64,000 nucleotides of DNA from Candidatus Yanofskybacteria bacterium. Lineage in GTDB: Bacteria; Patescibacteriota; Minisyncoccia; 2-02-FULL-40-12; IGHO2-01-FULL-4-A. Position 1 is the stretch's first letter. Each line of letters begins with the position of its first letter. The DNA lies in contig JACPNJ010000005.1 in assembly GCA_016185545.1 (NCBI GenBank), forward strand, positions 167,754-231,753. The letters run 5' to 3'. The position numbers were made by a program, and so were the translations under genes. The notes under the pieces were generated by a model that worked only from the letters and a program-made list of their open reading frames with translations, did not search any database and was not told the origin of the DNA. Below, piece by piece: positions 23,514 to 58,475 of the stretch.

Positions 23514-24725
23514 TTAAGCAATACAAATGAAAACTTTACTAAAAATCTCGTTAATCGGCTTCTGATATTTTATCACGAAAAGTTCGCCGTTGTCGTAAAT
23601 TTGGAACACGGTTTTATTGAGGCCCAAGAGCGGTTCCCAAATTTTATTATAAAACCAGCTTGCTTTGGTAAACCGGAAATCGTCATTGTTTGAATAAATC
23701 TGGTTTTCGGAATTGTAGTGGTAGTTGAAGTCCCTTTCGGTTATAAACCCGAGCTGCCTGTTACGCCGATGATATGACAGAAAACAATTTTCAAGAAAAT
23801 CCACTTGGGAAAAAGATATTATCATATCATCCGGATTGACATTCATTTTTTTAACGGCCAAAGCGATTTTGAAATTATTAAATAATTTGCGCGGTTCCAA
23901 TGAATAAAAGATTCTTGGAAAAAATTTAATCTCATCAAAGTACTCCCTTATATCGTCTGGTTTTACAAAATCCCAGCGAGGATGGCGGGAAACGACCAAG
24001 TTTATCTTGGTACTAGGCAAAAAAGACCTTATAAAACGCGCCAGGGATACCGCACTAACCACAAACTCCGTATGCGAAAGGACAAACCAAACTTTACCGT
24101 GAAAATCGGAAAATAGTTCGCGTATATTACGCTCAAAAAGTTCATCTTTTGCGGTGGCTATTCTATTTTCAACAAGCTCTTGTTTGAGGTCGGTTATAAA
24201 AAGTGAGCTTGGCACTTTTGCAAAATATGTTTCGGTAGTCTCAAAGTACTTGTCATTATAGACATTTTTAAAAAGCCGATAAAATAGGTAAGCATTCAGA
24301 CCGAAGCTATAGGCGGAAACCGCCGATGTTGAGTTCACGGCAAAAACACATTTAATTTTTGGAAGATTTTGCCACAAAAACAGTTCAGCCGTTGTTTTGT
24401 CTTGGATTAAATTAAAACCATTTAAGTTTAAAAATAATTGTTTTTTTTCATCAGATGGATGCGGTTTATAATAAAGATCGTACCCACCAAAATTCCGGCG
24501 AATATAATCAAGGCACTCGTTGCATTTAGCAACATAAAACTCCTTGTCTGCAAAACCTGAAGCCAGAATGCCTTTCATATCACTGCCCATAAAAACAACC
24601 ATTTTCGCGCTAAAACCGCTTTTAGAATCCGGTTCTTTTTTGTTTAAACTCAACAAATGAGGCAGTGAAATCCTGACGACATTATTTATTTTTTTATTTA
24701 TACCGACAAATTTTCTTATATCCAT
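23514..24725 (-). CDS. hypothetical GT-B-like transferase with a KPHP motif (paralog of 36483..37706)
   Basis: shares CLDYIR...YDLYYKPHP..FLNL with 36483..37706; HP motif as in CMP-sugar/CDP-alditol transferases. Confidence 0.45.
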   Translation of the reverse strand: MDIRKFVGINKKINNVVRISLPHLLSLNKKEPDSKSGFSAKMVVFMGSDMKGILASGFADKEFYVAKCNECLDYIRRNFGGYDLYYKPHPSDEKKQLFLNLNGFNLIQDKTTAELFLWQNLPKIKCVFAVNSTSAVSAYSFGLNAYLFYRLFKNVYNDKYFETTETYFAKVPSSLFITDLKQELVENRIATAKDELFERNIRELFSDFHGKVWFVLSHTEFVVSAVSLARFIRSFLPSTKINLVVSRHPRWDFVKPDDIREYFDEIKFFPRIFYSLEPRKLFNNFKIALAVKKMNVNPDDMIISFSQVDFLENCFLSYHRRNRQLGFITERDFNYHYNSENQIYSNNDDFRFTKASWFYNKIWEPLLGLNKTVFQIYDNGELFVIKYQKPINEIFSKVFICIA

Positions 24726-26226: not shown

Positions 26227-27360
26227 TTAATCGCAGTAGCTTTCAAGCTTACTATCCCGAACCGTATCAAGAGTACTGCAATGAATACCACCCATAAAAT
26301 AAGAATGCCTGAATGATATCGGGATAGGAGTAATTCCGTGTTTCTCAAGTATTTTCATAAGAGGAATCTGAATTTTATCTACAATGACATGCCCGGGATC
26401 AATGGATAAAAAATTCATTCCAATCCAAGGAGAACTGATGGAGCCAAGGCCGGATTTAACTCCCAGCTTTTCAAGTTCCAGATGAGCCGGTTTTCTGACC
26501 TTTTCGTGAATATCCAAGGTCCTCTGTGGCGTCGGAACAATATCGGAAAAATATATCTTGTCCCATTTTTCAAAAACCGGCGGACAGGTCTCGGGACTGA
26601 CCCGTGTAGCATTCAGCATAACCAGACCCGGACGCAATGCCATGGCTGTTGAATCTATGTGGCTTGAGCGATAGATCTCGCTCGTAGTATGGACCCTATA
26701 TTCATCACCCAAAACACTCTGGAGCCATTTGGCGCCGATATTATTACCGGACCGAGAAACAAGATATAAAAGATCCTTGCCCATTCTTAAAGTATTAGCG
26801 GCTTCAAATAATATCTCATCTTCAGTCAGTCGTGTGTATTTTTGTCCGTCATCATATTGGGATTTACCCTCAACGGTATAAACTTCCATGTGGTCGCCTG
26901 GCACGCGCGGCTTAGGACCGGCTACCCACCTAAAACCGCCTTCTTTAAAATACTCGTACAAAACCGGATATAAACCCATGGCTTCAAAATACCTGTGCTG
27001 TTCCTGCGACGGTGATTCAATGACATTACCGCCGACCACTAAATGCAGATCCCTCATATTATAGACATGGTCACCGACTGCGGAGAAAAATGGTGTCGTA
27101 AATAATTTATTGTTATGGGAAATATCGGGACGAAACACTTTCACGCCAAACGATTTTAAAACATTACAAAGCCCCTCTAAATCTTCGTTAATTTCATCAG
27201 TAAGCCACTGGGGATAAGCCTGGCGGGCTAATTTAACTGATTTTTCTAAAAGATCTTCTGAAACTAAGCCATGTTTAAATACCAAGGGAGCATGGCCATC
27301 TCCCCGGCCAACAATTATTTCTCTCAATTTATCCCACTCATTGTGGCTGTTTATTTTCAT
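26227..27360 (-). CDS. amidinotransferase-family protein
   Basis: N-terminal INSHNEWDKLREIIVG (amidinotransferase signature) and C-terminal GGIHCST catalytic-Cys motif. Confidence 0.65.
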   Translation of the reverse strand: MKINSHNEWDKLREIIVGRGDGHAPLVFKHGLVSEDLLEKSVKLARQAYPQWLTDEINEDLEGLCNVLKSFGVKVFRPDISHNNKLFTTPFFSAVGDHVYNMRDLHLVVGGNVIESPSQEQHRYFEAMGLYPVLYEYFKEGGFRWVAGPKPRVPGDHMEVYTVEGKSQYDDGQKYTRLTEDEILFEAANTLRMGKDLLYLVSRSGNNIGAKWLQSVLGDEYRVHTTSEIYRSSHIDSTAMALRPGLVMLNATRVSPETCPPVFEKWDKIYFSDIVPTPQRTLDIHEKVRKPAHLELEKLGVKSGLGSISSPWIGMNFLSIDPGHVIVDKIQIPLMKILEKHGITPIPISFRHSYFMGGIHCSTLDTVRDSKLESYCD

Positions 27361-27483
27361 CCCGTTAGAGGCAGGTTACGCTCTTTGAGCGTAACCGTAC
27401 CCAAATAGTTTAAATGATAATTCCCGTTTGTATGTTTCTTGCACCGCTATTCTTGATTAATTGCCTGTTGTGCCTCTAACGGG
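27361..27483 (-). repeat. family A variant element, copy A5
   Basis: termini cccgttagaggc/gcctctaacggg; internal ggttacgctctttgagcgtaacc hairpin. Confidence 0.7.
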
Positions 27484-28584
27484 ACGAGTCATCATTCTCA
27501 TTATATTAGCATGGTCTTCTCTGGCAATCTCGTATTTGCTTTTATTCAACTGGCTTGGATCATCCCGTACGAGACAGGTTGCGACCCTGTCGCAACCGTG
27601 CCTAGTTAGTTTATCATTATCTCCAACAGGGACACTCCGACCACCGGCCTTTTTTGTGTGTTTATTCGTCGTGTCTCGTACGGGATCATCCCTAGGAAAC
27701 ATATTGGATTTAAAACCGCATTCAACGCCCAATTGACTTAAAATCTTAAGAGTACTGTCATTGTAAGAATTGGCAGGATGGGCCATGTCCACGGGCGGCC
27801 TGCCGCAAACTCTTTGTATGTGTTCATAATTTTTTTGATACTCTTCTTGCTGTCGTTCAAAAGGAAGTTCGGCAAGCATCATGGGGTGTGAATATGAATG
27901 CAGTCCGATTACATGGCCTTGCCTATTTAAGTAAGCAAGGTTTTCATTTGACATCCATATGTTTTTAGAAAGATCGGCCAAATTCAACCCTTGGTCTTGA
28001 ATAATCGCATCCATAATTATTTCAAATTCCTCACGGCTTAACACGCGATCCCTAATCAAACGAAAGCGCATGTCATTGGTTGAGTAAAACGGGAAAGTCT
28101 TGGAATACCTTACCATATCGGTCTCTTCTAAAACTTTCCTGGCATTATTTCCAAATTTTGATTGAAAAATTTTATCAAAAAAAATATTGTAAAAGTCATC
28201 AATATCTTTAAAAAACTTAGAGCGAAAAACCCGATAAATTTCAAATTTGCCAAGGCCGCCCTCAAATACACTGGAATAGACGAACCAAAATGCTTTTAGG
28301 TTGTACTTGTCCAAAACCGGCAAGACAACATCAAATTGACATAATAGCCCATCATCCAGGGTTATGCAAACATCCCGATTGGTTAATTGGTTCGCCCCCA
28401 ATCGCTTAAGCCATTCTTTAGGATCAAGTATCCGATCTAATCCTACAAACATAAGAATGGCTTCAAAATCCGACATTGATATCGAACCTTGCCCTTTGTA
28501 ATGTTTCCGTTCGTCATGAAAATGATGGAACATTATCCCGTGAGCAACCGAACTGAGATATTTTTTTTTAGATAATTCGCTCAA
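27457..28584 (-). CDS. polysaccharide deacetylase (NodB-homology domain); the 3' ~230 nt of the ORF reads through elements B3 and A5
   Basis: ITLDDG NodB motif and HSYSHP His motif; the frame stays open through the repeat elements, so the true C-terminus is uncertain. Confidence 0.6.
   Translation of the reverse strand: MSELSKKKYLSSVAHGIMFHHFHDERKHYKGQGSISMSDFEAILMFVGLDRILDPKEWLKRLGANQLTNRDVCITLDDGLLCQFDVVLPVLDKYNLKAFWFVYSSVFEGGLGKFEIYRVFRSKFFKDIDDFYNIFFDKIFQSKFGNNARKVLEETDMVRYSKTFPFYSTNDMRFRLIRDRVLSREEFEIIMDAIIQDQGLNLADLSKNIWMSNENLAYLNRQGHVIGLHSYSHPMMLAELPFERQQEEYQKNYEHIQRVCGRPPVDMAHPANSYNDSTLKILSQLGVECGFKSNMFPRDDPVRDTTNKHTKKAGGRSVPVGDNDKLTRHGCDRVATCLVRDDPSQLNKSKYEIAREDHANIMRMMTRPVRGTTGN
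27564..27684 (-). repeat. family B element, copy B3
   Basis: cccgtacgagaca...tgtctcgtacggg; in tandem with A5. Confidence 0.8.
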
Positions 28585-29725
28585 TTTTTTTAATATCTAA
28601 ATAATCCTCGGAAGAAAAACTTAAACCCGAGGTAATTTTTTGAAAGCCCTCGTAAAAACGCGGCTCACTGACAAGGTTATGAATATTGGCAGTTGGTACA
28701 AGAATCAACATTTCATTATTAACCCATGCTTCTTTATTGGAGTCGTTGGAACCCATAAGAGCTTCGTGCAGTTTGTCGCCGACACGATCTCCAATGTATT
28801 TTATTTTTATCACAGCCCCAGAAGACCGCTGCTTCAGTCGTGGATGATTGGGTCTTCTGGGGCTGGATTCCGCCCCACGGTCAAGCCGCCAAGCTTGACT
28901 GTGGGTGATGGTACCACGGGCTTGGCCGTGGGGCTCCATTTTTTTTCCAGAGTAATATTTTTTTATAAATATACTGGCTAGATCTCCCAAGCGGATTGAC
29001 GGCATTTTCAAAATAAAAATTTCACCGCCCGAACAAAGCTGGGCCGCTTTCAGAGTCAAACTAACGGCTTGTTTTATGGACATGAGAAAGCGGGTCGCGT
29101 CTTTGTTGGTAACATTAATCGCGCCGCTGGCTTCTACTTGTTTTACCCACATCGGCAGTACTGAACCATCGGCCCAGGCAACATTGCCGAATCTTACACA
29201 GGCAAGCTTCATTTTATCTCCCAGAAAAAAACTGGAATTTATAAAAAGCTTCTCCATCATAAGCTTGGAAGCGCCAAGCACATTTAAGGGGTTGGCAACT
29301 TTATCCGTGGAAATGGCAATAATTTTTTCAACACCGGCGTGCAAAGCCGCGTCAATAATATTATGTGAACCGACAATGTTAGTTTTCATCGCTTCTGACG
29401 GATTATACTCGCAAAACGGAACATGTTTTAAGGCGGCGGCGTGAAAAACTATGTCTACATTTTTAAAAGCAAGATGTAAACGCTCTTGGTCTCTTATGTC
29501 TCCAATCAACATCCTTAAGTTTTTTGGGTAACGAAGCGCCTCCAATAGGTGGTATTGGCGTGTTTCATTTCTGGATAAAACCCTGATCTGCTTCGGCTTG
29601 GACTTTAAAAGCTGGCGAACCAGTTCTGCGCCAATACTACCAGTGCCTCCAGTTACCAAAATGGTTTTATTTTGAAACTCGTTAATCATAGAAAACAACT
29701 TAAAAATGCAAACCTCAAATCTCAA
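28568..29725 (-). CDS. UDP-GlcNAc 4,6-dehydratase (PseB/FlaA1/CapD-like), with an in-frame 43-aa insertion
   Basis: ILVTGGTGSIG...VLSRNE...HAAALKHVP...YIGDRVGDKLHEAL; 385 aa versus ~335 for homologs. Confidence 0.75.
   Translation of the reverse strand: MRFEVCIFKLFSMINEFQNKTILVTGGTGSIGAELVRQLLKSKPKQIRVLSRNETRQYHLLEALRYPKNLRMLIGDIRDQERLHLAFKNVDIVFHAAALKHVPFCEYNPSEAMKTNIVGSHNIIDAALHAGVEKIIAISTDKVANPLNVLGASKLMMEKLFINSSFFLGDKMKLACVRFGNVAWADGSVLPMWVKQVEASGAINVTNKDATRFLMSIKQAVSLTLKAAQLCSGGEIFILKMPSIRLGDLASIFIKKYYSGKKMEPHGQARGTITHSQAWRLDRGAESSPRRPNHPRLKQRSSGAVIKIKYIGDRVGDKLHEALMGSNDSNKEAWVNNEMLILVPTANIHNLVSEPRFYEGFQKITSGLSFSSEDYLDIKKIERII
28811..28939 (-). repeat. GC-rich triple-hairpin element inserted in-frame in a coding sequence
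   Basis: 129 nt at ~62% GC versus ~40% background; stems gccccagaagacc/ggtcttctggggc, cccacggtcaagc/gcttgactgtggg, ccacgg/ccgtgg. Confidence 0.6.
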
Positions 29726-30150
29726 AATGTAATTTAAAATTCCAAACTATTTTCTGCCTTTCATGGTTAGTACGCCAGCGCCAATAATTTTAGAAATTTC
29801 TTCGGCTTCTTTAAGCAATGGGTTAATTTGATTTCTTAAATTAGGCGTACTTTCAATGAGCAAAATCAACCAATATTTTGTCTCATTAGAACTCTTAAGA
29901 GCAATCTGAAAAAATTTTAAATAATCCAATTTTGAGCTAGCGGCTCGAGCTTCGAAAACGTTGGCTCCAACTGAAGTTGCAGATCGAATCAGTTGATCGG
30001 CTATCGCCCACAAATTCCTACTTTTTCTTACTTCTCCACAAAGTTTAATTATTGCTAAAGAAAAATCAATAAGCCGTTTATTAAATTGCATTTTAAAATT
30101 TACATTTTCATTTTGCATTTTGAGATTTGAATTTTGAATTGGGTAATTTT
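29703..30150. mobile_element. inverted-repeat-bounded module carrying a four-helix-bundle (23S rRNA IVS-type) protein gene
   Basis: AT-rich inverted-repeat arms with core caaatctcaaaatg (29703-29746; 30092-30150, reverse complement) flank the ORF. Confidence 0.55.
29747..30118 (-). CDS. four-helix-bundle protein (23S rRNA intervening-sequence protein family)
   Basis: WAIADQLIRSATSVGANVFEA...YLKFFQIALKSSNETKYWL is characteristic; the first 9 codons lie in the inverted-repeat arm, so the probable start is MQFNK (~30091). Confidence 0.7.
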   Translation of the reverse strand: MQNENVNFKMQFNKRLIDFSLAIIKLCGEVRKSRNLWAIADQLIRSATSVGANVFEARAASSKLDYLKFFQIALKSSNETKYWLILLIESTPNLRNQINPLLKEAEEISKIIGAGVLTMKGRK

Positions 30151-31270
30151 AACTATACTTTTTCAGGACATTAGCAAGGGTATGTGAAATATACTTAATA
30201 TCTTTCTCTTTCAATCCTATATAAAAAGGCAGGGCCAGCGACGACTGACTGACCGCTTCCGAAACAGGAAAGTCCCCTTCTTTGAAACCAAATTTGTCTT
30301 TATAAAAACTGAACAGGTGAATAGACGGCAAATATGGCTTAGTGCTTATTCCTATTTTTTGTAAATCTTCTATAACTCGGTTTCTATCGGTTTTCTTATT
30401 TTTTATCTTTATCACATACACAAACCAGGTAGGATTATTACCTTCGGCTATCTTTGGGGCCTCTACAAGACCAGAAAACGTCTCTAAATGCTTGCTATAC
30501 CAGCCAGCGAGCGCTTGTCTATGTTTTATCATAAAATCGAGCTTCTGCAATTGGGCAGTACCCAAAGCCGCACTCATTTCGTCCATTCTATAATTATATC
30601 CAAGATACTGATGGTCTAACCATTGCATATTCTCGGCTCGACCCTGATTGCGCAAGCTCGCACAAAGCTCATATATTTTCCTGTTGTTTGTTACGACCAT
30701 CCCGCCTTCAGCTGTGGTTATTTGCTTATTGGGGTAGAAAGCAAAAACAGCCGATTCGCCAAAAGTGCCGACCTTTTTCCCCTTATATTCAGCACAAATG
30801 CTTTCGCAGGCATCTTCAATTATTTTAAGTTTATGTTTTTTGGCAATTTTAATTATCGGGTCCATGTCCACCGCCTGGCCGAAAATATGGACTACCAAAA
30901 TGGCTTTTGTTCTTTTAGTAAGACGTTTCTCAATTTCGGCCGGTTCCATGTTATAAGTAACAGGGTCTATATCAACAAAAACCGGCTTCGCGCCGACATA
31001 CAAAATACAATTTGCTGACGCAATAAAAGAAAATGGGGTAGTTATCACTTCGTCGCCTGGACCGATACCAGCAGCGATCATTGCTAGATGCAGACCGGCC
31101 GTACCGCTTGATACGGCACAGGCGTATTTTGTGCCGATTTTTCTGGCAAACAACATTTCAAATTCTTTATACTTGGGGCCTAAGCTTAAATTTCCAGAAC
31201 GCAAAACTTCGAGAACTGTTCGTTCTTCTGATTTCGTTATGTAAGGTTTTGCCAGTTGATATTTAGACAT
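30149..31270 (-). CDS. DegT/DnrJ/EryC1/StrS-family PLP-dependent sugar aminotransferase
   Basis: AFYPNKQITTAEGGMVVTN (Lys/PLP motif); 373 aa. Confidence 0.8.
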   Translation of the reverse strand: MSKYQLAKPYITKSEERTVLEVLRSGNLSLGPKYKEFEMLFARKIGTKYACAVSSGTAGLHLAMIAAGIGPGDEVITTPFSFIASANCILYVGAKPVFVDIDPVTYNMEPAEIEKRLTKRTKAILVVHIFGQAVDMDPIIKIAKKHKLKIIEDACESICAEYKGKKVGTFGESAVFAFYPNKQITTAEGGMVVTNNRKIYELCASLRNQGRAENMQWLDHQYLGYNYRMDEMSAALGTAQLQKLDFMIKHRQALAGWYSKHLETFSGLVEAPKIAEGNNPTWFVYVIKIKNKKTDRNRVIEDLQKIGISTKPYLPSIHLFSFYKDKFGFKEGDFPVSEAVSQSSLALPFYIGLKEKDIKYISHTLANVLKKYS

Positions 31271-31303
31271 TTTGATATTTAAAAACCCAACTAAAAAGTC
31301 GGG

Positions 31304-31705
31304 TTATTTTAATTTACTCACTATCTTGGCCGGACATCCGAAAGCAATAACGTTTGGGGGTAAATTCTTGGTAACTAAACTGCATGCCCCAACGGTCGTA
31401 TTTCTTCCAACCCTTACTCCGGGCAATACGACACTATGGGCCCCGATTCTGCAACCTTCTTCCAACACGACTCTTCCCCTTTTCCCGTCTATTGTTGACA
31501 CTGAATATATATGGCAACCGCCACCGATCTCAACCCGATCTCCTATCTCAACCCCAGCCTGAGCGTTGATATAGGTAAAAGCCCCGATGTCAGTCTCTTT
31601 GCCCAATTTTAAGCCGGAAAGACCCTGAACCATCCAATTCCATTTAGTTAACTTGCCTTCTTTAATTATCGGTTTTTTCCAATTTTTAAATCTTTGTTTT
31701 GCCAT
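31304..31705 (-). CDS. left-handed beta-helix (hexapeptide) N-acetyltransferase (PglD/NeuD/LegH-like)
   Basis: hexapeptide repeats IGDRVEIGGGCHI...IGAHSVVLPGVRVG. Confidence 0.7.
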   Translation of the reverse strand: MAKQRFKNWKKPIIKEGKLTKWNWMVQGLSGLKLGKETDIGAFTYINAQAGVEIGDRVEIGGGCHIYSVSTIDGKRGRVVLEEGCRIGAHSVVLPGVRVGRNTTVGACSLVTKNLPPNVIAFGCPAKIVSKLK

Positions 31706-31716
31706 ATACCGTCCTC

Positions 31717-32874
31717 TTAGTATGTTATTTGCTTTGTTAATAATCTGGAGTTGATATTAATATTTTCCAGTATTTTTGCAACTCTCGGACCGGTCTTGCC
31801 ATCCCCCCAAGGATTTTTAATTTTCTTGAGCCGCTTTAAATATGCTTGATCATTAATAGATTTATAAACGGCTTTTTCTATTTCTTTCTTGTTATAGCCA
31901 ACGTCAATAACATTGGCACCGCGTTGCCGTCCCGTCTGACGAGTACCGACATTCACCACCGGGGTTTGGAAAGAAGACGACTCTATTATAGCGCCGCTTG
32001 AATTCCCCACCCAAACCGCGGTTTCCCGTTCCAGAGCAAGAAATTGCTTGTATTCCAAACTTGGAAATATATGAAAAAGCGGATTGTTTTTTTCTTTTTC
32101 TATGACACTTATAATTTTTCTGCCGCCGGCATCAGCGTGGGGATAAGTTATCACAACAGGCAAATTGAATTTTTTTACTGCCGCCAAGGTTTCTTCCATC
32201 TGCAGACCGGCGTTTTCTACTTCTTCGCTGACGGGGTGCTGAGTCACCAAAATAACATTCTTGCTTGGATCAAGATTCAATTTTTTAAAAAATTCCTTTT
32301 TTGTCGGCAGTTTCTCATTTAATATTACGTCCAATGCCGGCGCGCCCACAATATGGATTCTCCATTTTTCCTCGCCCATTTTTTGAATACGGTCAGCCGA
32401 TTCTTGAATCGCCGGAAAATGAATATGTGATAATTTCGTAATGGCGTGGCGGGCCAGCTCATCAACGGTGGAAGTTTTGTCGCCTCCATGAACATGGCCG
32501 GTGGGAATTCCAAGGTATAAGCAAGCCATGGCCGTGCAAAGCATCTCCGGCCTATCACCAAGAGTCAAAACAAAATCAGGCCTATTTTTGCTAAAAGCCC
32601 CTACCAATCTACTTAAAAAAACGCCTGTAAATTTCGTCATGCCCGGTCTGTCACCTGTTTCAAATCTTGCTTCTATATTTATTGCATTGGGAAATTCTTT
32701 TCTGACATACTGCACTGTTTCTCCAAATTCCGGCATCAGATGAGTCCCCGCGGCATAAACTTGTAAATCAAGCTGCTTGCTTCGGCTAATGGCCTTGAGT
32801 ATTGGGGTCATCAATCCAAAATCAGCGCGAGTACCGGATATATATGCAATTTTTTTCTTATTTTTTAAAATCAT
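31717..32874 (-). CDS. neuC: UDP-N-acetylglucosamine 2-epimerase (hydrolysing), NeuC/LegG-like
   Basis: YISGTRADFG...HVHGGD signature. Confidence 0.8.
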   Translation of the reverse strand: MILKNKKKIAYISGTRADFGLMTPILKAISRSKQLDLQVYAAGTHLMPEFGETVQYVRKEFPNAINIEARFETGDRPGMTKFTGVFLSRLVGAFSKNRPDFVLTLGDRPEMLCTAMACLYLGIPTGHVHGGDKTSTVDELARHAITKLSHIHFPAIQESADRIQKMGEEKWRIHIVGAPALDVILNEKLPTKKEFFKKLNLDPSKNVILVTQHPVSEEVENAGLQMEETLAAVKKFNLPVVITYPHADAGGRKIISVIEKEKNNPLFHIFPSLEYKQFLALERETAVWVGNSSGAIIESSSFQTPVVNVGTRQTGRQRGANVIDVGYNKKEIEKAVYKSINDQAYLKRLKKIKNPWGDGKTGPRVAKILENININSRLLTKQITY

Positions 32875-33913
32875 TTTTTGATATTAAAACATCGGCTTTT
32901 ATATCTTTTACTGCTTTACTGCCTAAAACTTTAAAATAATATTTTGGCTCAAGTCCGGTTCCAGGACGTTTTATGCCTATATTATTGGCAGTAAATAACT
33001 CCCCTCTTTTTGTATCCTTTATAGAAACAATGCTTTTTCTGGCTATGTTCCTTAATGAAAGTTCCTCTGGGGTTGGTTTTTTAACCCGAGATCCCAGTAT
33101 AGCTCCGGTATTTTTAATAGCCGAGATCATTTGACGCAGTTCTTCCGATTCAACAGAGGCATTGTGGTCGGGACCTGGCATATTTTTATCCAAGGTCATA
33201 TGCTTTTCTATTAAAACAGCACCTAGGGTAGCAGCCATAATCGGTACATTAATTCCCAAAGTGTGGTCGGAGTATCCAACTAGAACGCCGAATTTTTCTT
33301 TTAACGCGGCCATTGCCCGAAGATTTACATTTTCAGGCGGACAGGGATATTCAGTGGTGCAATGGAGGAGGATTATTTTATTGTTGCCAGTTTTTTTAAT
33401 ATGGCTTACGGCTCTTTTCACTTCTTCCGTGGTTGCCATTCCAGTGCTTATAATCATCGGCTTGCCTATTTTTGCGGCATATTCCAATACAGGAAGATTC
33501 GTCAAATCACCAGAGCCAAACTTAAAAGCCGGGACTCCTAAGTCATTAAGAAAACCAACGGATTCAAATCCTCCATGGGGAGTAGATAAAAAAATGATGC
33601 CAATTTTTTTACAATGGGCCATAATAGGTTGGTAAAATTTTTCGTTTAGTTCCAGTTTTTTGAGCATTGCCACCTGGCTTTCAATTTTTCCGATGTTTTT
33701 TATTTGGTAAGCAGCCATGGGAACGCTAGCCAGAGCTACTTGTTCGGCTTTGAAAGTTTCAAATTTTACCGCATCCGCGCCCGAATTTTTTGCGACATCA
33801 ATCAATTTAAGAGCCAGCTCAATAGAGCCATTATGATTAACCCCGGCTTCAGCAATAACAAAAACCGGTTTATTAAAACCGACTTCTTTATTTCCGATTT
33901 TTATCGTCTCCAT
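32858..33913 (-). CDS. neuB: N-acetylneuraminate-synthase-family nonulosonic acid synthase (NeuB/LegI/PseI) with a C-terminal SAF domain
   Basis: VFVIAEAGVNHNGS...DAVKFE. Confidence 0.85.
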   Translation of the reverse strand: METIKIGNKEVGFNKPVFVIAEAGVNHNGSIELALKLIDVAKNSGADAVKFETFKAEQVALASVPMAAYQIKNIGKIESQVAMLKKLELNEKFYQPIMAHCKKIGIIFLSTPHGGFESVGFLNDLGVPAFKFGSGDLTNLPVLEYAAKIGKPMIISTGMATTEEVKRAVSHIKKTGNNKIILLHCTTEYPCPPENVNLRAMAALKEKFGVLVGYSDHTLGINVPIMAATLGAVLIEKHMTLDKNMPGPDHNASVESEELRQMISAIKNTGAILGSRVKKPTPEELSLRNIARKSIVSIKDTKRGELFTANNIGIKRPGTGLEPKYYFKVLGSKAVKDIKADVLISKNDFKK

Positions 33914-33955
33914 AATTACCGATTACCAATTACTGATTACTAATTACCGGTTCCC
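33914..33955. repeat. array of five (N)ATTAC(C/T) heptamer direct repeats in the SDR-neuB intergenic spacer
   Basis: attacc-g-attacc-a-attact-g-attact-a-attacc. Confidence 0.5.
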
Positions 33956-34738
33956 CTATATCGTCCACCCGCCGTCAACGACAATATTCTGGCCGGTAAT
34001 ATAAGCGGAAGCATCGGATAACAAAAACAGCAGCGCTCCGGCAACATCTTCCTGTTTGGCCATGCGGCGCGGCGCCAATTTGACTTTCCCAACATATCTT
34101 TTTACAAACGATTCCGGCTGATTATCAAACACCCCCCCGGGAGATATGGCGTTAACCCGGATGCCGTGCGGCCCCAAGTAAGACGCAAGATATCTAGCCA
34201 GGTTGACGATGCCGCCCTTTATTGCCGCGTATTCCACCGGCATGGTCATATGCGTCCCTTCGTAAATTTCAAATTTAGGAGCGGCTATTCCATAGATTGA
34301 GCCCATCAATACGATACTGCCTCCCTTTTGTTCTTTCATTGTCCGCGACACTTCCTTGGTCATCAGGAAATATCCCCCCAAATGAGTTGACAGGTTGTCG
34401 CAAAAATCCTCATAAGTCACATCTTCAAACTTTCTCCCATAATTTTTGTTTCTGGGATAAGCGCAATTTACCAGAGCATCAATTCTTCTAAATTTTTTGA
34501 GAATATTTTTAATGGCTCTTTTAACGCTCGCCGGTTTGGTAATGTCGCATTGCTGAAATAAAATATTTTTATTTTTGGTATCACGGACAAGGCGGCCAGC
34601 GAGATTTTTGCCCGTTTTAGGATTGGTATCAATGATAACCACCTTGGCCCCGTTTTCGGCGCAAGCTCTGCAAAAAGCCGAGCCAATTAGACCGGCCCCG
34701 CCGGTAATAACACAAACTTTCCTCGCGATATTAAACAT
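33956..34738 (-). CDS. short-chain dehydrogenase/reductase
   Basis: VITGGAGLIGSA Rossmann motif. Confidence 0.7.
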   Translation of the reverse strand: MFNIARKVCVITGGAGLIGSAFCRACAENGAKVVIIDTNPKTGKNLAGRLVRDTKNKNILFQQCDITKPASVKRAIKNILKKFRRIDALVNCAYPRNKNYGRKFEDVTYEDFCDNLSTHLGGYFLMTKEVSRTMKEQKGGSIVLMGSIYGIAAPKFEIYEGTHMTMPVEYAAIKGGIVNLARYLASYLGPHGIRVNAISPGGVFDNQPESFVKRYVGKVKLAPRRMAKQEDVAGALLFLLSDASAYITGQNIVVDGGWTI

Positions 34739-35678
34739 TGTTTTGTTTTAACGCTAGGGCATTTTTCAAATCCCCTAGCGCCTCGTTAAAATTACTATGC
34801 TTCACGCGTTTTAAAACTTTTTTAATAAAAAACGATAGCTCGTTAAGATACATTTTATTTCCGTCAACTTTAACATTTATAAACGATTCTCTTTTCGGCA
34901 ATCTTACGGCTATTTCGTTTTTTAAACTGTCCCAAGTGGCTGTTCCCTTGTCTCCGATTATTTCGCAGTATCTCCGACCCGGATATCGAAGGTAATCTTG
35001 GTGAATTGAAACCACGGTTCCTGTTTTTGACTCAAATACTCCTTCGGCTATATCCTCCGATTTTATATTAAACATTCCCGCTCTTTTTACCAGTCCGGCT
35101 TTAAATTTTATATTTTCATCAATCAGCCAAGCCGGATAATTTATTTCGTGAATCAGGTCCAGCACTACGCCTCCGCCCCTTTGGGCATCATACGAATATA
35201 TTTTTTTATAATCTCTTTTTCGCCAAGTCCTTAAATCTTGGCCGACTGAAGCTCTTATAAAAACCGGCCGGCCGATTATTTTCTTTTTTATTATCTTTTT
35301 TAATTCAATAATCGGTTTATGAAACTGGAGGCAATAGCCGACAAAAAATACCGGCGTCCTGCTTAGAAGTTTTTTTATTTCATTTGCTTTTTTCAAATTA
35401 TGAAATAGCGGTTTCTCAACAAATATTCCTTTTGGCTTTTGCTTTAGGCATTTAATTATCGCGTCAGCGTGTTTGTATGTTTCATTGGTTATGAAAAATA
35501 CATCGGCCGTATTTTTGAAAAATTCATTTTCTGATTTAAAAATTTCGTCCTTTAAAAATAAATCAGTCCTTTTGGTTAGAATTTTAACCTTGACCCTTGG
35601 ATAGAGTTTTTTAATATTCCGGTAATGCCTTCCACCGATTGAACCGAATCCAATTATGCCAATAGTTTTTATCATCAT
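34731..35678 (-). CDS. Gfo/Idh/MocA-family oxidoreductase
   Basis: N-terminal IGIIGFGSIGGRH NAD-binding motif. Confidence 0.7.
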   Translation of the reverse strand: MMIKTIGIIGFGSIGGRHYRNIKKLYPRVKVKILTKRTDLFLKDEIFKSENEFFKNTADVFFITNETYKHADAIIKCLKQKPKGIFVEKPLFHNLKKANEIKKLLSRTPVFFVGYCLQFHKPIIELKKIIKKKIIGRPVFIRASVGQDLRTWRKRDYKKIYSYDAQRGGGVVLDLIHEINYPAWLIDENIKFKAGLVKRAGMFNIKSEDIAEGVFESKTGTVVSIHQDYLRYPGRRYCEIIGDKGTATWDSLKNEIAVRLPKRESFINVKVDGNKMYLNELSFFIKKVLKRVKHSNFNEALGDLKNALALKQNNV

Positions 35679-35680
35679 CT

Positions 35681-35768
35681 AAATTCAAAAAGCAAATCTC
35701 AAATCTCAAAATCTAATTTATAATTAAAAACTTTCATTTTGGATTTTGAGATTGAAATTTTGAATTTT
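35681..35768. repeat. 'caaatctcaaaat' AT-rich palindromic hairpin (empty copy of the 4HB-module inverted repeat)
   Basis: gcaaatctcaaatctcaaaatc ... gattttgagattg. Confidence 0.65.
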
Positions 35769-36476
35769 TTTCTCTATTTTCTTTTTGTGGGCAAATATAG
35801 TTTCCGCCAAAATCCAATCTTCTATGCCGTCCAAATCAATTGAGCGCCATTTCGGACAGACAACGCCGCGGGTATCGGCATTAATAAATTTTCTGGTTTT
35901 TATAAATTCATTGATTCTTATCATATAGACCATACAGCCATTGAGCAAATAACCGGCGGGCCAAACCTGCCTATTGGTGCTTTCTTTTTCAATTTTATTT
36001 GCCAAAATTAATTTGCCTTGGTCATCTAAATGATAAAGACGCGGATGCGTGTCACATATTGTACAGACGGATCTGACCTTGGAATCTAGCATCCGTTTCC
36101 AGCATTTTTTGATATCGGATATTTCTCTCAATGGCGAAGTTGTTTGTAAAAGAGTTATTATATCCGGCTCATAACCATCCTCTTCTTTTAGTCTTTTAAG
36201 TAGAAGTAAAACGGCGTCAACGACAGGCGATTTATCACCAGCCAACTCCTTGGGCCTTAAAAACGGCACCTCGGCGCCGTATTTTCTGGCCACTGCGGCG
36301 ATTTTCTCATCTTCTGTATCTACAACAATCCTATCAAACAAGCCGGTTTCCCTGGCTTGCTCTATGGCATGTGCAATTAGCGGTTTACCATGAAAAATTT
36401 TGATATTCTTGCCGGGTATGCCTTTAGACCCGCCTCTGGCCGGAATAATGGCTAAATTTTTTATTGATTTTTGCAT
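35724..36476 (-). CDS. neuA: acylneuraminate cytidylyltransferase (CMP-nonulosonic acid synthetase, NeuA/LegF/PseF-like)
   Basis: AIIPARGGSKGIPGKNI...TSPLR; the last ~14 codons are encoded by the palindromic repeat. Confidence 0.8.
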   Translation of the reverse strand: MQKSIKNLAIIPARGGSKGIPGKNIKIFHGKPLIAHAIEQARETGLFDRIVVDTEDEKIAAVARKYGAEVPFLRPKELAGDKSPVVDAVLLLLKRLKEEDGYEPDIITLLQTTSPLREISDIKKCWKRMLDSKVRSVCTICDTHPRLYHLDDQGKLILANKIEKESTNRQVWPAGYLLNGCMVYMIRINEFIKTRKFINADTRGVVCPKWRSIDLDGIEDWILAETIFAHKKKIEKKIQNFNLKIQNESF

Positions 36477-36482: not shown

Positions 36483-37706
36483 TTATTTGACTTGAAATTT
36501 TCCGTTTTCAAATAGATAAACCTTGTCATACACATCATTAAGCGGTTTCTCATAACGGCTGATATTTAAAACGGTTCCGTCTCCGTATTTCAAATACAGT
36601 GTCCTATTCAGTCCCAATAACGGCTCCAGAATTCTGTTATAAAAAATATTTGATTTAATCTGATAAAATTTGTCATCACTCAAAACTTCCGATCTTTTAA
36701 CGCTATACATCCATTCCGGATTGAGTTTATTCTGACAAGATATTTTCATGGCCTTCTTATTGTAAGAAATCAGGCAATTTTCCAAAAAACCGGAATGGGT
36801 AAAACCGAAAATAATGTCTTCACTGCCAATCGGTAATCTTTTGGCCGAAAAAGCGATCTTAACGGCATCAAAAATCTTTCGCGGCCTAAAAGAATAAAAG
36901 GTTCTTTTAAATGTATGGACCGCATCAAAATACGGCCCAACCTCCTCAATATTCATCTTACCCCACCTATTATGACGATAAATAATTAAGTTGGTGTTAC
37001 GGTTGGAACTAATGCTTTTTATCAAACTGGTCATAGCAATTATAGTGGGCAGGAATCCGGGGTCGGCAATAATAAACCAAATAGCGCCCTTTTTTGAAGA
37101 AATCGCGTTTCTAATCTCTTTTTCCAATAATTCATTTTTTGCGGGAATGATTTTATTCTGGGTCAACTTTTCATCAAAATTGTTTATAAAAAATTGAGGC
37201 GGCATTTCTTTGAAATAATCCTCATAAAAACCGGCTCGCGCTTCACCCATGGCCGTTTTAAATAATCGGGAAAAAACATAAGAATTTAATCCCATGGCAT
37301 AAGCCGGTACGGAAATCCAGGAAAACGGAGAAAAGACGCACTGAATCTTATCAAGATTTTTCATAAGAAAAAATTCGCTGATTGAAGTATCCTCAATGAA
37401 TTTAAAAGACGCTAGGTTAAGGAAATCTCGTTCATCTTTCTCCGCCGGATGCGGCTTATAATAAAAGTCATAACCCGCGCATTCTTTTCTAATGTAATCG
37501 AGGCATTTGTTTTCAATGTCTATGTAATTTTTTTGGTCTAATTCGGGAAAAAGACGAAAATCAAGGCCCATAAAAATGACCATTTTCTTTTCGTCTTTTC
37601 CTTGGCCTAAATTGTTAAAAACAGGATAGGGCGTTTTAAAAACGGCAATATTATTTTTTGCTGTGTTCAGTTTTTTCAATTTTCTGATGTCTTTGGCTAA
37701 AAACAT
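36483..37706 (-). CDS. hypothetical GT-B-like transferase with a KPHP motif (paralog of 23514..24725)
   Basis: CLDYIRKECAGYDFYYKPHPAEKDERDFLNL. Confidence 0.45.
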   Translation of the reverse strand: MFLAKDIRKLKKLNTAKNNIAVFKTPYPVFNNLGQGKDEKKMVIFMGLDFRLFPELDQKNYIDIENKCLDYIRKECAGYDFYYKPHPAEKDERDFLNLASFKFIEDTSISEFFLMKNLDKIQCVFSPFSWISVPAYAMGLNSYVFSRLFKTAMGEARAGFYEDYFKEMPPQFFINNFDEKLTQNKIIPAKNELLEKEIRNAISSKKGAIWFIIADPGFLPTIIAMTSLIKSISSNRNTNLIIYRHNRWGKMNIEEVGPYFDAVHTFKRTFYSFRPRKIFDAVKIAFSAKRLPIGSEDIIFGFTHSGFLENCLISYNKKAMKISCQNKLNPEWMYSVKRSEVLSDDKFYQIKSNIFYNRILEPLLGLNRTLYLKYGDGTVLNISRYEKPLNDVYDKVYLFENGKFQVK

Positions 37707-37876: not shown

Positions 37877-38839
37877 TTACTCCAGGGTATTTTTTCTCCT
37901 TAATTTGGCCTCAATGGGTTTTTCTGAATCCAATAAAACTTTTGCGGGTTGGCCCAAATAAATAGGTAAATCCCTAAGCTGTACCGTCAATCTGCCCAAA
38001 CCGTATAATTCAAGACTGGCCGCTTGGTCTGTCCCCCACATAGCCCTATCCAGCGTAATGTGCCGCTCAATGACGCAGGCGCCTAATGAGGCGGCGACCA
38101 ATGAAGAATATACCCCGACCTCATGACCGGAGTAGCCGATATGAACCTTGGGGTATTTTTTAATCAGCCGGGGAATATTGGCTAAATGCAATTCATTGTC
38201 TTTACCGGGGTAAGTGGAGGTGCAATGCAAAATTACAAGATTTTCTTTCCCTAAAAATTTAACGATTTTTTCAATTCTCTCATCGTCGGTCATACCAACC
38301 GAGACTATAATAGGCTTACCCTTGGCTTTGATATGGGCCATCAGATTCCTGTCCAGGTTACATGCAGAAGCGATTTTGTAACAGGGCAGGTCAAACTGTT
38401 CAAGAAAGTCAACGCTTCCTTCATCCCATGGTGAAGCAAACCATAAAATTCCTTTCTGCCGGCAATATCGGTCAATTTCCCGATATTCTTTTTGCGTCAG
38501 CTCCAAAGCCCATTTAAGATCCCCGTTCGTAGAATTTTCAAAATCGGAATTGGTCAGTCGCTTGACGGCTTCATCGGAAAGGACTCCTCGTCTAACGGCA
38601 TTTCTCAACACGCCTTCGTTAACTTGGCGCGGCTTTGCCAATTCTTCAGCGGTATAGACAACCGGCACGGTTCTTTTTTGAAATTTAACCGCGTCACATC
38701 TCTGCGCAACTGCCCCGTCAATAAGCTTTTTAGCAATCTCAATATCGCCGTTATGGTTTATTCCAATCTCCGCAACTATAAAAACCGGCTGGTTGTATCC
38801 AATCTCTTTGCTTCCTATTTTCAACATCTCGGCTCCCAA
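37877..38839 (-). CDS. NeuB-family (sialic-acid-synthase-like) enzyme without a SAF domain
   Basis: VFIVAEIGINHNGD...DAVKFQKR. Confidence 0.7.
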   Translation of the reverse strand: MGAEMLKIGSKEIGYNQPVFIVAEIGINHNGDIEIAKKLIDGAVAQRCDAVKFQKRTVPVVYTAEELAKPRQVNEGVLRNAVRRGVLSDEAVKRLTNSDFENSTNGDLKWALELTQKEYREIDRYCRQKGILWFASPWDEGSVDFLEQFDLPCYKIASACNLDRNLMAHIKAKGKPIIVSVGMTDDERIEKIVKFLGKENLVILHCTSTYPGKDNELHLANIPRLIKKYPKVHIGYSGHEVGVYSSLVAASLGACVIERHITLDRAMWGTDQAASLELYGLGRLTVQLRDLPIYLGQPAKVLLDSEKPIEAKLRRKNTLE

Positions 38840-40934: not shown

Positions 40935-40955
40935 AACCGGCATAAAACCGGTTTT

Positions 40956-47918: not shown

Positions 47919-48635
47919 TTATTTCCAATAGGTTACATCGTAACTACAGAGAATGAGTTTACCAAGATCTGGCTTATATTTGTATTCCGTAACACCGCAA
48001 TTTGCCGGGTCGGTTTTAGAAATCAGCCCAGTCTTCTCAAACGATAATTCTTCGTTTACCATGCGAAAAGCATCAGTTGTCCTTGCATGGCTTACAACTA
48101 ATACTTTTTTATCTGGATAATCTAATCGCAGTTTAACTAAAAACACGTTAATCCGCGTACACACATCCGCAACGCTTTCGCCACCAGGCGGCACCGCAAA
48201 CATGGGATGGCTATTATCCCAATAATTCTTTCTCCAAGGAAAATGTTTTCGTACTTCTTCTGCCAGCATATTCCGCGTATAGCCGCCCGCGCGTTCGCGA
48301 AGCAATATATCAGAATGTGCCCGTGATTCAATTTTGACACGATCTCTTCCATAACCTTCTAAAATATACTTGACCGTTTCCTCGGCACGAACATATCCCG
48401 AATGAAATACGACATCAAACAGACCATATGCCTTTCGTAATGCTACCCCTGTCTGACGCGCTTGTTCAATACCACGCTCAGTAAGCGAAATGTTTTCATC
48501 AGAAAGTTCGCCTGCGACAATTTTTTCGGCTTGATCTTTAAAGAAAACTCCCTTCTTTTTAGTATTACGGGCAGATTCGGCATGCCGCACTAAAACTAAT
48601 AATTTTGGGAAATTAATTTTTTTCATTTTTTCCAC
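47919..48635 (-). CDS. histidine-phosphatase (phosphoglycerate-mutase-like) family protein
   Basis: LVLVRHAESARN RHG motif. Confidence 0.65.
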   Translation of the reverse strand: MEKMKKINFPKLLVLVRHAESARNTKKKGVFFKDQAEKIVAGELSDENISLTERGIEQARQTGVALRKAYGLFDVVFHSGYVRAEETVKYILEGYGRDRVKIESRAHSDILLRERAGGYTRNMLAEEVRKHFPWRKNYWDNSHPMFAVPPGGESVADVCTRINVFLVKLRLDYPDKKVLVVSHARTTDAFRMVNEELSFEKTGLISKTDPANCGVTEYKYKPDLGKLILCSYDVTYWK

Positions 48636-49429
48636 AGACCTCGCGTTTTAATATTTTCTACTGCCAAATCGGCCTTGTTTTTTTGATTGCCAAGGAAATC
48701 TTTTTGTCTAAAAAAATTAATATCTGCCAATTCCGGCTTTTTTTCTATTAGTTCAATGATTTCTTTTGTGGGAGTAAGGTTTCGATCTGTTCCAAGTTCA
48801 TTAAAAATCGTTTTAAAAAAATCTAGATCCTCCGGATAATCCAGAGTCATCCTGATATTTTTGTTGTAATAAATCGAATTTTCCACGAATAAATCCCTAA
48901 TGTCAAATAGACCGGTCTCTGTAAAATACTTGGACATTTGATCGCCGGTATGCATGCCCTTAATCTCACAAGCCTTTTTAATGGCCGAACGTGAAATGCC
49001 CTTGGTGAAAGAACCGCAAACTAAACCCTCTGGGGCTTTTATATAATCACAGGGGTTGCTAATGATTTGTTCTACGGCAAGATCTATGAGTTCGGGATCG
49101 CAAAAAAGATCGTCGCCATCAAAATTAATCAAATAATCTATTTTGAATTTTTCTGCTGCGCCAAGCCATCTGACAAACTTGTCTTGTAAAGGACCCCTGT
49201 AACTTTCTATTTTTTCTTTTCTCGCGATTTCTTCCAGAATATTGTCTTCCGAACAATCGCTAGTGCACAAAACTATTAAATCTATTTTTTTTGCCAGCTT
49301 AGCTCTATCAATATCATGCTCAATCACTTTTCTACCTTGGATCGGCAAAAGCATCTTCTGCGGCAATCTGGTTGAACTCGTCCTGGCTGTAATAAAAAGT
49401 CCGAATTTTAGTTTTTTGTTTTTAGACAT
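48623..49429 (-). CDS. cytidylyltransferase (CTP_transf_3/SpsF-like)
   Basis: FITARTSSTRLPQKML. Confidence 0.6.
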   Translation of the reverse strand: MSKNKKLKFGLFITARTSSTRLPQKMLLPIQGRKVIEHDIDRAKLAKKIDLIVLCTSDCSEDNILEEIARKEKIESYRGPLQDKFVRWLGAAEKFKIDYLINFDGDDLFCDPELIDLAVEQIISNPCDYIKAPEGLVCGSFTKGISRSAIKKACEIKGMHTGDQMSKYFTETGLFDIRDLFVENSIYYNKNIRMTLDYPEDLDFFKTIFNELGTDRNLTPTKEIIELIEKKPELADINFFRQKDFLGNQKNKADLAVENIKTRGLWKK

Positions 49430-50753
49430 GGCTGTTTGTTATTTGGTTCACTAATTTTTCCAGTTCCAAGGGATAATTGGGAGTATCCGGCGATATAAAA
49501 TCAAAAATATTGGCATATTTAACACCATCGGCCTCTGATATTTGCGAAAATGATTCCGTGAAAATTTTTTCCAAATCATCGGTGTTTTCAATCAGATAAA
49601 TATTTTTAAATTTATTAATATCTTTGAAGTGCGTATGGCGGGCAAGCAGATTTTTGGGATTGGTAAAGTGAACGCCGTCATCATAAACCGGCACAAAAAC
49701 TTTTTTTCCAAACAGCAATCCTTCAATCATCATCGTGGAAAGCGGGCAAATCATAAACTCCATATTGGCCAAGAGTTTCGGATAATACTTCAGGTCTGGC
49801 ATAAAAACATCATTGAACTCGTCCATTTCATCGCGTTTATAATAAAGTTTGGCTTGCTCATCTATCACAATGTGCTTGAAGTCATACTCAAAAAAAGTAT
49901 CGGCACATTTGCGATGCTTTCTCCAGGGGTGAGGACGATAGATAATTTTGATGCCAATCCCTTTTCGGTCAATTATTTCTTCCAGCTTCTTCAGCGTAGA
50001 AAGCTCATCAAACGGCGCGGCAATTCCGGCAAAAAGAATATATTTAAAATTATATGGCGAGGGTAGGTCGCGTCCATCACGATTCATATATTCCATAAAA
50101 CGTGGAGTGCCCAATGGAAAAACATGGCTTCTTTCCATATTGTGAATGCGAACGGCATCCTCAACCGCTTGCTTTCCCCAAACTACTAGATAATCGGGTC
50201 TCCTGGTAAGAACAGTTTTGCTTGTTAAATTATCCCAATTGTCAATAAGTAAGCAGGTCGGAATTTTTTTCTTTTTTGCTATTCTGATAATTTCAAAGGA
50301 TAGGCCGTCATAGCCGCCAGACGGTAAAAGTATGGCTTGCGGGTTTATCACTGAAAGAATCCCCTCCAGATTTTTGTCCCGAGTAATTTTAAAAACAAAA
50401 AATTTAACTAAGTTATATATAACGGGTAAAGAGGCCAGCTTATAATAAAATTTGCGGCGTCGACTGGATAATTGCTCAAATCGGAAAGCAAAGGAACTGC
50501 TTTTATGCCTGTATCTCCACGCATCTACGTAGAAAAAATGGCGATACCAAGATTTGTATCTCTCCGGATAAAGATACGGCACCAATTGTTCTCTTTTTAT
50601 ACCGAGAAAGTCTTTAACCATTAACTTTTCATGGACAATAAAAACACACCTATCTTTGATCTTATACAACGCGGGAGAGGAAATAAAGTTACGATAATAT
50701 TCGGGTGTAGAAATGACAACAAGTATTGTTGAATTTTTATGCGGATTGACCAA
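49422..50753 (-). CDS. hypothetical transferase-like protein with an RPHP motif
   Basis: 443 aa; IIYRPHPW HP motif as in the two KPHP paralogs. Confidence 0.4.
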   Translation of the reverse strand: MVNPHKNSTILVVISTPEYYRNFISSPALYKIKDRCVFIVHEKLMVKDFLGIKREQLVPYLYPERYKSWYRHFFYVDAWRYRHKSSSFAFRFEQLSSRRRKFYYKLASLPVIYNLVKFFVFKITRDKNLEGILSVINPQAILLPSGGYDGLSFEIIRIAKKKKIPTCLLIDNWDNLTSKTVLTRRPDYLVVWGKQAVEDAVRIHNMERSHVFPLGTPRFMEYMNRDGRDLPSPYNFKYILFAGIAAPFDELSTLKKLEEIIDRKGIGIKIIYRPHPWRKHRKCADTFFEYDFKHIVIDEQAKLYYKRDEMDEFNDVFMPDLKYYPKLLANMEFMICPLSTMMIEGLLFGKKVFVPVYDDGVHFTNPKNLLARHTHFKDINKFKNIYLIENTDDLEKIFTESFSQISEADGVKYANIFDFISPDTPNYPLELEKLVNQITNSHV

Positions 50754-54434: not shown

Positions 54435-54436
54435 GC

Positions 54437-58451: not shown

Positions 58452-58475
58452 GAATTAAAAGATGGAAGCTCGGGA

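Follow-up and report, generated by a model that had tools for sequence, protein, structure and literature searches.

Which enzymes transfer nonulosonic acids, nine-carbon sugars akin to sialic acid, in the Patescibacteria, an uncultivated, host-dependent phylum with essentially uncharted surface glycans? Little is known of the transferases of legionaminic, pseudaminic and other nonulosonic acids in comparison with the enzymes that synthesize those sugars, and the question is raised here by a stretch of 64,000 nucleotides from a Candidatus Yanofskybacteria genome (GCA_016185545.1, contig JACPNJ010000005.1, positions 167,754 to 231,753; hereafter, the window). A prediction made from the letters of this DNA alone had singled out two paralogs carrying a KPHP motif, together with an RPHP-bearing protein. 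We found all three on the minus strand, exactly where they had been placed: the open reading frames (ORFs) A (23514..24725; 403 aa), B (36483..37706; 407 aa) and C (49422..50753; 443 aa), which are 100% identical to HYX20_03045, HYX20_03110, and HYX20_03175, respectively. Translation confirmed the codons of the motifs, also on the minus strand: K87-P88-H89-P90 of A at 24456..24467, K84-P85-H86-P87 of B at 37446..37457, and the RPHP of C (residues 273–276) at 49926..49937.

The His–Pro (HP) motif marks a clade of glycosyltransferases that comprises the GT38, GT52 and GT80 sialyltransferases and the GT99, GT107 and GT140 transferases of 3-deoxy-D-manno-oct-2-ulosonic acid (Kdo). A and B, as judged from their alignments, are almost certainly circular permutants relative to their canonical relatives, with the donor domain coming first; and they are probably soluble cytoplasmic transferases forming an unannotated family within that clade of GT-B enzymes, whose donors are ulosonic acids activated with cytidine monophosphate (CMP).

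Domain order and predicted fold of A and B

A and B can be aligned over their full length (36% identity, 60% positives; E = 1e-95) and have the segments CLDYIR, YYKPHP and FLNL in common, as originally predicted. Between A and C we obtained only one local match, of 82 residues around the motif (E = 0.005), and we rejected a single family for the three proteins because that match is motif-level only, although profiles tie their donor domains together.

The domain order was read by comparing A with P0202, a canonical relative, in which BLASTP matched residues 12–186 of A to residues 222–393 (E = 8e-22) and residues 204–400 of A to residues 6–204 (E = 1e-18). From these swapped segments it follows that the termini of A have their counterpart in the interdomain linker of P0202, and that the middle linker of A (residues ~187–203) joins the equivalents of the C- and N-termini of P0202. 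The Rossmann-like donor domain—the predicted CMP-binding domain, bearing the HP motif and delimited by BLASTP, the Pfam GT38 match and split hidden Markov models (HMMs)—is first in the chain at residues ~12–186 (24168..24692, minus strand); the acceptor-side Rossmann-like domain, delimited by BLASTP and holding D300, is second at residues ~204–400 (23526..24116, minus strand).

In the Pfam scan A matched GT38 (PF07388) with 20.4 bits (E = 4e-4), which score lies under the gathering threshold of 23.3 bits; the matching residues 64–141 correspond to positions 226–306 of a model of 316, so that the HP region is near the N-terminus in A and near the C-terminus in the known family. The same scan gave no match at all for B and C; neither A nor B matched GT52 (PF07922) or any NCBIfam model, and C gave only two NCBIfam matches, both far below threshold. 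The original prediction that no established glycosyltransferase family would be recognizable was thus nearly right: it held for B and C with respect to Pfam, and the sub-threshold GT38 match of A is where it fell short.

Searching 1.84 billion representatives exhaustively with the profile yielded 337 relatives, some 35 of them full-length and co-linear with A, along with dozens of proteins of ~400 aa that matched in two swapped pieces, the profile positions ~7–200 lying in their C-terminal half and ~200–398 in their N-terminal half. When the fetched proteins were scored with a separate HMM for each half, 80 were HP-first and 62 acceptor-first; the short matches to one half only, "HP-only" or "acceptor-only," were mostly on short contigs, and split genes were considered for them. 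We also scanned GTDB, with one genome per species and a 12-sequence alignment as the query: the 13 proteins at 11 Patescibacteria loci (Yanofskybacteria, Saccharibacteria, Paceibacterota) were HP-first without exception, and the nine from Verrucomicrobiota (Chthoniobacterales, Spartobacteria) were acceptor-first, likewise without exception. Cluster look-ups of the canonical relatives gave scarcely any names, one Chloroflexota metagenome-assembled genome being identified; these proteins of canonical order, from Verrucomicrobiota and Chloroflexota, are the nearest relatives of A and B. Within the genomes scanned the permuted form occurs in the Patescibacteria only. The canonical GT-B arrangement—an N-terminal acceptor domain followed by a C-terminal nucleotide-sugar domain—is found neither in A and B nor in ~80 homologs.

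An unrooted neighbor-joining tree, computed on the domains after re-ordering and concatenation, contains a single branch that parts 88 permuted from 49 canonical proteins, which split is consistent with one permutation event. To our knowledge, all the characterized HP-motif families have the acceptor domain followed by the donor domain, and for this reason the canonical order would most parsimoniously be the ancestral one. A single origin of the permutation is probable, and the route may have been, for instance, the fusion of tandem gene copies and the subsequent loss of both ends; no tandem acceptor–donor–acceptor–donor intermediates came to light in the 311 proteins that were fetched or in the ORFs of the loci.

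The family itself is unannotated. Among 5.8 billion proteins, a word-indexed search returned 47 homologs of A, of which those with a name were assigned only to Yanofskybacteria, Paceibacterota or "Patescibacteria group," each being labeled hypothetical; a precomputed Pfam domain (GT52) was recorded for one of the 47 and none for the other 46. Twelve positions are invariant in the 41-sequence alignment: G47, C71, L72, R76, H89, P90, L101, F104, F128, S132, S317 and P365. Scanned singly, seven of the 41 permuted members gave a weak GT38 match and five a GT52 match (best E = 2.3e-7), 12 of 41 together; of the canonical-order members five out of 57 matched GT38, one of these with 36 bits and hence above threshold. 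Membership of A and B in GT38 or GT52 was nevertheless rejected, since they neither reach the Pfam threshold nor have the domain order of those families. One permuted member, P0195 (643 aa, from an ENA metagenome), is fused at its C-terminus to a Methyltransf_24/CmcI-like O-methyltransferase domain, which fusion echoes the methyltransferases that flank A.

The AlphaFold2 model of A, built with the family alignment (pLDDT, the predicted local distance difference test, 90.2; pTM, the predicted template-modeling score, 0.88), consists of two alpha/beta halves at residues ~42–170 and 210–400, which halves are Rossmann-like, as the two domains of the canonical GT-B fold are. Structure prediction against glycosyltransferase families, the check that the original prediction had suggested, gave a GT38 polysialyltransferase as the top match of this model, with one domain aligned over 159 residues, followed by the GT80 sialyltransferases and the GT107 and GT140 Kdo transferases. 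The full-length matches that Foldseek returned from the PDB had low template-modeling scores only, and these are uninformative as to family, though consistent with a chain order that cannot be superposed. As to sequence profiles against the PDB, the best match of the HP domain was KrkA (E = 0.012); the full-length A-family profile gave only chance matches to Utp24, and the profile of the canonical relatives chance matches to L22 and weak ones to KpsC, none of them significant.

Candidate active site, gene context and rival explanations

Among the 137 permuted and canonical relatives, H89 is conserved in 98–100% and P90 in 100%, with position 87 (Lys or Arg) and P88 likewise conserved in both groups, inside the overall range of 84–100% for the donor-domain positions G47, 87 to 90, E114 and S132; because H89 and P90 are, moreover, invariant in the 41 family members, the KPHP motif is, on the evidence of conservation, not a chance occurrence. 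Conserved throughout both groups are also G47 (94–100%), E114 (84–95%), S132 (98–100%; with Thr next to it in 82% of the canonical proteins) and G142 (90–99%). The second domain contributes D300 (92% of the permuted and 98% of the canonical proteins), W251, F263 and N313 (84–98%), and S317 (100% and 80%, respectively).

In the polysialyltransferase of Mannheimia haemolytica (MhPST), residues K289, H291, P292, E323 and S339/T340 of the C-terminal domain hold cytidine diphosphate (CDP; PMC5517516); and in the Neisseria polysialyltransferase, for which the HP motif was defined, mutants in that motif show a higher Km for CMP-N-acetylneuraminic acid (CMP-Neu5Ac; PMC2169525). The residues [KR]87, H89, P90, E114 and S132 match those of MhPST in order and with similar spacing, in A and B alike, from which correspondence we infer that they would be the equivalent CMP contacts, the basic residue standing two positions ahead of the His, the Glu binding the ribose and the Ser the phosphate. 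At the putative position of the D/E-D/E-G motif, as judged by sequence, A has D299-D300-M and B has E-D-I, and the family reads [D/E/G]-D300-[I/V/L], without the Gly.

We propose that A and B each have a putative GT-B-like cleft between their two domains, in which K87, P88, H89 and P90, along with E114 and S132, would bind the cytosine, the ribose and the phosphate of the CMP-sugar. H89 would stabilize the phosphate of the leaving CMP, and D300, contributed by the other domain, is the candidate catalytic base that would deprotonate the acceptor hydroxyl. The transfer would be metal-independent and would proceed by a single displacement with inversion, which course is favored because the G-Q-x-x-x-D nucleophile element of the retaining enzymes is absent.

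The genes called between 20949 and 39554 are nearly all on the minus strand, as are the features given with window coordinates in the rest of this section. Directly upstream of B lies a NeuB-family synthase without a SAF domain (37877..38839), in a pairing that occurs also in the Patescibacteria loci L003 and L008, and 6 nt downstream of B a CMP-sugar cytidylyltransferase (CTP_transf_3, PseF/NeuA-like; 35724..36476). The gene content of the interval 28568..33913 points to a legionaminic-acid-type nonulosonic acid pathway: a PseB/LegB-like dehydratase, a PseC/LegC-like aminotransferase, a hexapeptide-repeat acetyltransferase-like ORF (31304..31705), a NeuC-type hydrolyzing 2-epimerase and a NeuB synthase, the last two exceeding the NCBIfam cut-offs. 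In all, the window contains three NeuB and three CTP_transf_3 genes, plus genes of the GT2, GT4, GT9 and GT-C types; the genes for Wzt (an ABC ATPase with a Wzt_C domain) and Wzm (an ABC-2 permease) at 57189..59291 are candidates for glycan export, to which A and B may be linked. The paralogs had been said to sit next to CMP-sugar synthetase and NeuB genes, which statement holds for B and for A only loosely: A is flanked by methyltransferases, the nearest NeuB being ~8 kb off in the same co-directional array of genes.

In eight of the 11 Patescibacteria loci the permuted gene has a NeuB homolog within 10 kb, and in L002, L003, L008 and L009 this homolog is directly upstream, with a gap of 1–9 nt. 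Two paralog lineages recur, both kept in Yanofskybacteria and in Saccharibacteria: the B type follows NeuB (L003, L008), and genes of the A type have as neighbors a C-methyltransferase, DUF6165, GT9 and a methyltransferase, in L003 and L005 just as in the window. There, the DUF6165 protein (20949-21344) is paired with a GT9 heptosyltransferase-like gene (21349-22440), which pair is conserved together with the C-methyltransferase and the A-type gene in the Saccharibacteria loci L003 and L005. At L002 1112-3022 and L009 7199-9997, the NeuB homologs that immediately precede the permuted genes are unusually long (~636 and 932 aa), which length suggests NeuB fusion proteins in other Patescibacteria.

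The donor would be a CMP-nonulosonic acid, as the gene context suggests, supplied by the co-transcribed genes of the legionaminic-type pathway (28568..36476) and the second NeuB; that the sugar transferred by A and B is indeed a nonulosonic acid of the legionaminic type we hold to be somewhat favored. The acceptor would most likely be a lipid-linked glycan, built in the cytoplasm by the GT2, GT4 and GT9 enzymes and exported through Wzm/Wzt to the cell surface, with a protein O-glycan as a possible alternative. The original proposal of candidate CMP-sugar transferases gains support from the likeness of the model to GT38, GT80, GT107 and GT140, from the conserved positions of the CMP contacts, from the scattered GT38 and GT52 matches and from the NeuB and CMP-sugar synthetase genes that accompany the family in other Patescibacteria; and on the sequence evidence we consider it likely that A and B function as CMP-ulosonate transferases.

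Several observations weigh against this interpretation. Neither A nor B attains any Pfam or NCBIfam threshold, and the family profiles have no significant sequence match in the PDB; the D/E-D/E-G motif of the sialyltransferases is there only in part, the Gly being missing; and the HMMs behind the conservation analysis and the tree came from the permuted family, that tree being unrooted. As to context, A adjoins methyltransferases and neither NeuB nor a CMP synthetase, and in Verrucomicrobiota the neighbors of the canonical relatives are unrelated, with no gene for nonulosonic acids to be found within 10 kb, which circumstance means that the donor specificity may differ across the superfamily.

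Of the explanations that compete with inverting CMP-ulosonate transfer, that of retaining beta-Kdo- or Pse-type transferases—after the manner of WbbB (GT99), KpsC/KpsS (GT107) and KrkA (GT140), and acting by double displacement through a covalent Asp–sugar adduct—we consider unlikely. In the retaining Kdo transferases, the donor domain continues after its first strand with a G-Q-x-x-x-D element, to which the Asp nucleophile belongs: GQTLND with D193 in KrkA and GQVESD in KpsC (PMC12887879). A and B have the donor-domain pattern in common with those enzymes, but lack that element: Gln does not figure in the three commonest residues at the position after G47; the fifth position after G47 is variable (N in 26%, G in 24% and D in 14% of the permuted proteins); and D49, two positions after G47, is 65% conserved in the permuted proteins but mostly Pro in the canonical ones. 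The adjoining synthases are, furthermore, of the NeuB type and not KdsA, and the top structural match is an inverting GT38 enzyme. With the nucleophile motif absent, the retaining mechanism was rejected as the leading model. That A and B might instead be TagF/TarL-like phosphotransferases, moving an alditol phosphate or a sugar phosphate from a CDP-activated donor, is very improbable; they have neither a Pfam match to nor their top structural similarity with the TagF-like CDP-glycerol and CDP-ribitol phosphotransferases (PF04464).

It is likewise quite improbable that A and B are not transferases at all, but bind the CMP-sugar as a hydrolase, an epimerase or some modifying enzyme, or serve as a scaffold without catalysis that retained the nucleotide-binding domain through the rearrangement; for both domains are strongly conserved, including D300, W251 and N313 on the acceptor side, which residues are common to the canonical relatives, two paralog lineages are maintained in Yanofskybacteria and Saccharibacteria, a dedicated NeuC is already present, and, A, B and C apart, the genes scanned—most of the ORFs of the window with at least 150 aa—include no family known to transfer nonulosonic acids. 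Finally, an artifact of assembly, gene calling or alignment might have reversed the order in otherwise ordinary GT38/GT52-like enzymes, to which notion the provenance of all the sequences from metagenome-assembled genomes lends some substance; but A and B are single uninterrupted ORFs between stop codons, each flanked on either side by other genes, and the same order recurs in ~80 distinct proteins that stem from many sources and independent assemblies. The two segments in BLAST leave no ambiguity, and these, together with the split HMMs and the genome loci, refute an artifact, whose probability we regard as negligible.

Protein C and other elements of the window

Protein C belongs to a separate family, related to that of A and B in the donor domain only, with the two GT-B domains in the normal order and the HP motif in the C-terminal one. 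That family comprises at least 304 clusters, including Curtissbacteria and one gammaproteobacterium, all unannotated; R273 and P274 are invariant in it, and H275 and P276 are conserved in 88%. With hhalign, residues 209–351 of C matched the HP domain of the A family at 91.4% probability (E = 9e-7), while the C-family profile found no match among the PDB sequences, and C resembled the NCBIfam BFO_1060 family only faintly (E = 0.0088; 15 bits, where the cut-off is 200). A CTP_transf_3 cytidylyltransferase (48623..49429, minus strand) overlaps the downstream (3') end of C, and a PseF-like CMP-sugar cytidylyltransferase (50761..51513, minus strand) lies upstream. From its sequence, C is plausibly another CMP- or CDP-dependent transferase, with which description both glycosyl transfer and phosphotransfer would fit.

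Around the second and third NeuB genes, at 39705-47855 and 51698-56015, is an unusual set of sugar-modifying genes encoding a radical SAM/SPASM enzyme, two KdsC-like HAD phosphatases, an APH-type kinase, a GFO/IDH/MocA oxidoreductase, short-chain dehydrogenases/reductases (SDRs), an EamA transporter, a histidine phosphatase, a fused transketolase-like protein and an aldehyde dehydrogenase. The trio of transketolase, SDR and CTP_transf_3 recurs in loci L002, L003 and L008, and the set suggests a further, uncharacterized CMP-activated sugar.

Where the 3' end of a polysaccharide-deacetylase ORF meets the start of the ORF 26227..27360, two GC-rich palindromic elements of ~135 nt each stand in tandem (27357-27487 and 27557-27691), a partial copy of one arm being found at 18369-18388. 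Each has a closing stem of 17–20 bp and an inner hairpin, GGTTGCGAC/GTCGCAACC, and the minus strand of the region (27345-27700) folds with -118.7 kcal/mol (z = -7.9). These elements could be repeats of the miniature inverted-repeat transposable element (MITE) or repetitive extragenic palindromic (REP) kind, or else a structured RNA; the Rfam scan of the window, palindromes included, and the tRNA scan were both empty. The adjacent ORF 26227-27360 (minus strand; 377 aa), without a Pfam or NCBIfam match, ends in ..FMGGIHCSTLD.., which we take to resemble the pattern of the amidinotransferase/arginine deiminase superfamily, and its product might carry out an acetamidino-type modification of the nonulosonic acid.

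Inside the dehydratase ORF (28568..29725), in which the Pfam match stops at residue 258, two perfect or near-perfect GC-rich hairpins at 28813-28934 coincide with an odd insertion of ~40 aa (..HGQARGTITHSQAWRLDRGAESSPRRPNHPRLKQRSSG..), which insertion may be an in-frame small mobile element or a sign that the gene is disrupted. Wedged between the dehydratase and aminotransferase genes is a small ORF (29747-30118, minus strand) that may, from its sequence, encode a four-helix-bundle protein of the type found in 23S rRNA intervening sequences; and upstream of the glycan island an ORF at 6962-7921 on the plus strand encodes an rve-type integrase of an insertion-sequence element.

Significance and comparison with known systems

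The broadest reading of these results would be that A and B represent an evolutionarily fixed, natural circular permutation of GT-B, defining a clade of nonulosonic acid transferases with two paralog lineages that is, in the genomes scanned, exclusive to Patescibacteria, for and against which proposition we see the case as evenly balanced. In our searches of the full-text literature, which have incomplete coverage, we met with neither an account of a GT-B glycosyltransferase that is circularly permuted nor a report of nonulosonic acid transferases in Patescibacteria, or the candidate phyla radiation. The list of candidate nonulosonic acid transferases is extended by an unannotated family whose genes are linked to those for NeuB and CMP synthetases. 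If the permuted proteins are active, then the two-domain GT-B architecture tolerates a natural rewiring of its connectivity, which knowledge would be useful in enzyme engineering, where the circular permutants of sialyltransferases are artificial; and the pair of permuted and canonical forms offers a clean natural experiment on interdomain linkers versus GT-B domain closure. For annotation, the family is a warning that profile models dependent on domain order overlook permuted proteins.

Among the few bacterial transferases of pseudaminic and legionaminic acid (Pse/Leg) that have been implicated genetically are Tanf_01245 and TFUB4_00887 of Tannerella forsythia, which reportedly have D/E-D/E-G and HP motifs in their C-terminal part (PMC5420450). 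To these Pse/Leg transferases, of the NCBIfam BFO_1060 family, A and B have no significant similarity, and the C-terminal location of the motifs is a further difference. The TagF/TarL CDP-alditol phosphotransferases, with the TagF-like capsule polymerases, also count among the nearest known systems. Relative to KrkA, KpsC/KpsS and WbbB, A and B have the reversed domain order, lack the Q-x-x-x-D nucleophile and adjoin synthases of the NeuB instead of the Kdo type, though the pattern of the donor domain is common to all. The order is reversed also with respect to GT52 (Neisseria Lst/NST type, PF07922), whose Pfam model A and B do not match, and to GT80 (Pasteurella PmST1 and the Photobacterium sialyltransferases), to the acceptor domains of which two families that of A and B has no detectable similarity. 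From the GT38 polysialyltransferases of M. haemolytica (PDB 5WC6) and Neisseria meningitidis B (PF07388), A and B differ again in the order of the domains, as well as in a motif reduced to [DEG]-D-[IVL], in the absence of an N-terminal membrane anchor and in the adjoining genes, which point to a sugar of the legionaminic type and not to Neu5Ac. What A and B have in common with GT38, GT52 and GT80 alike, as a pattern of sequence, is the HP motif along with the remaining CMP contacts—the basic residue, the Glu and the Ser/Thr.
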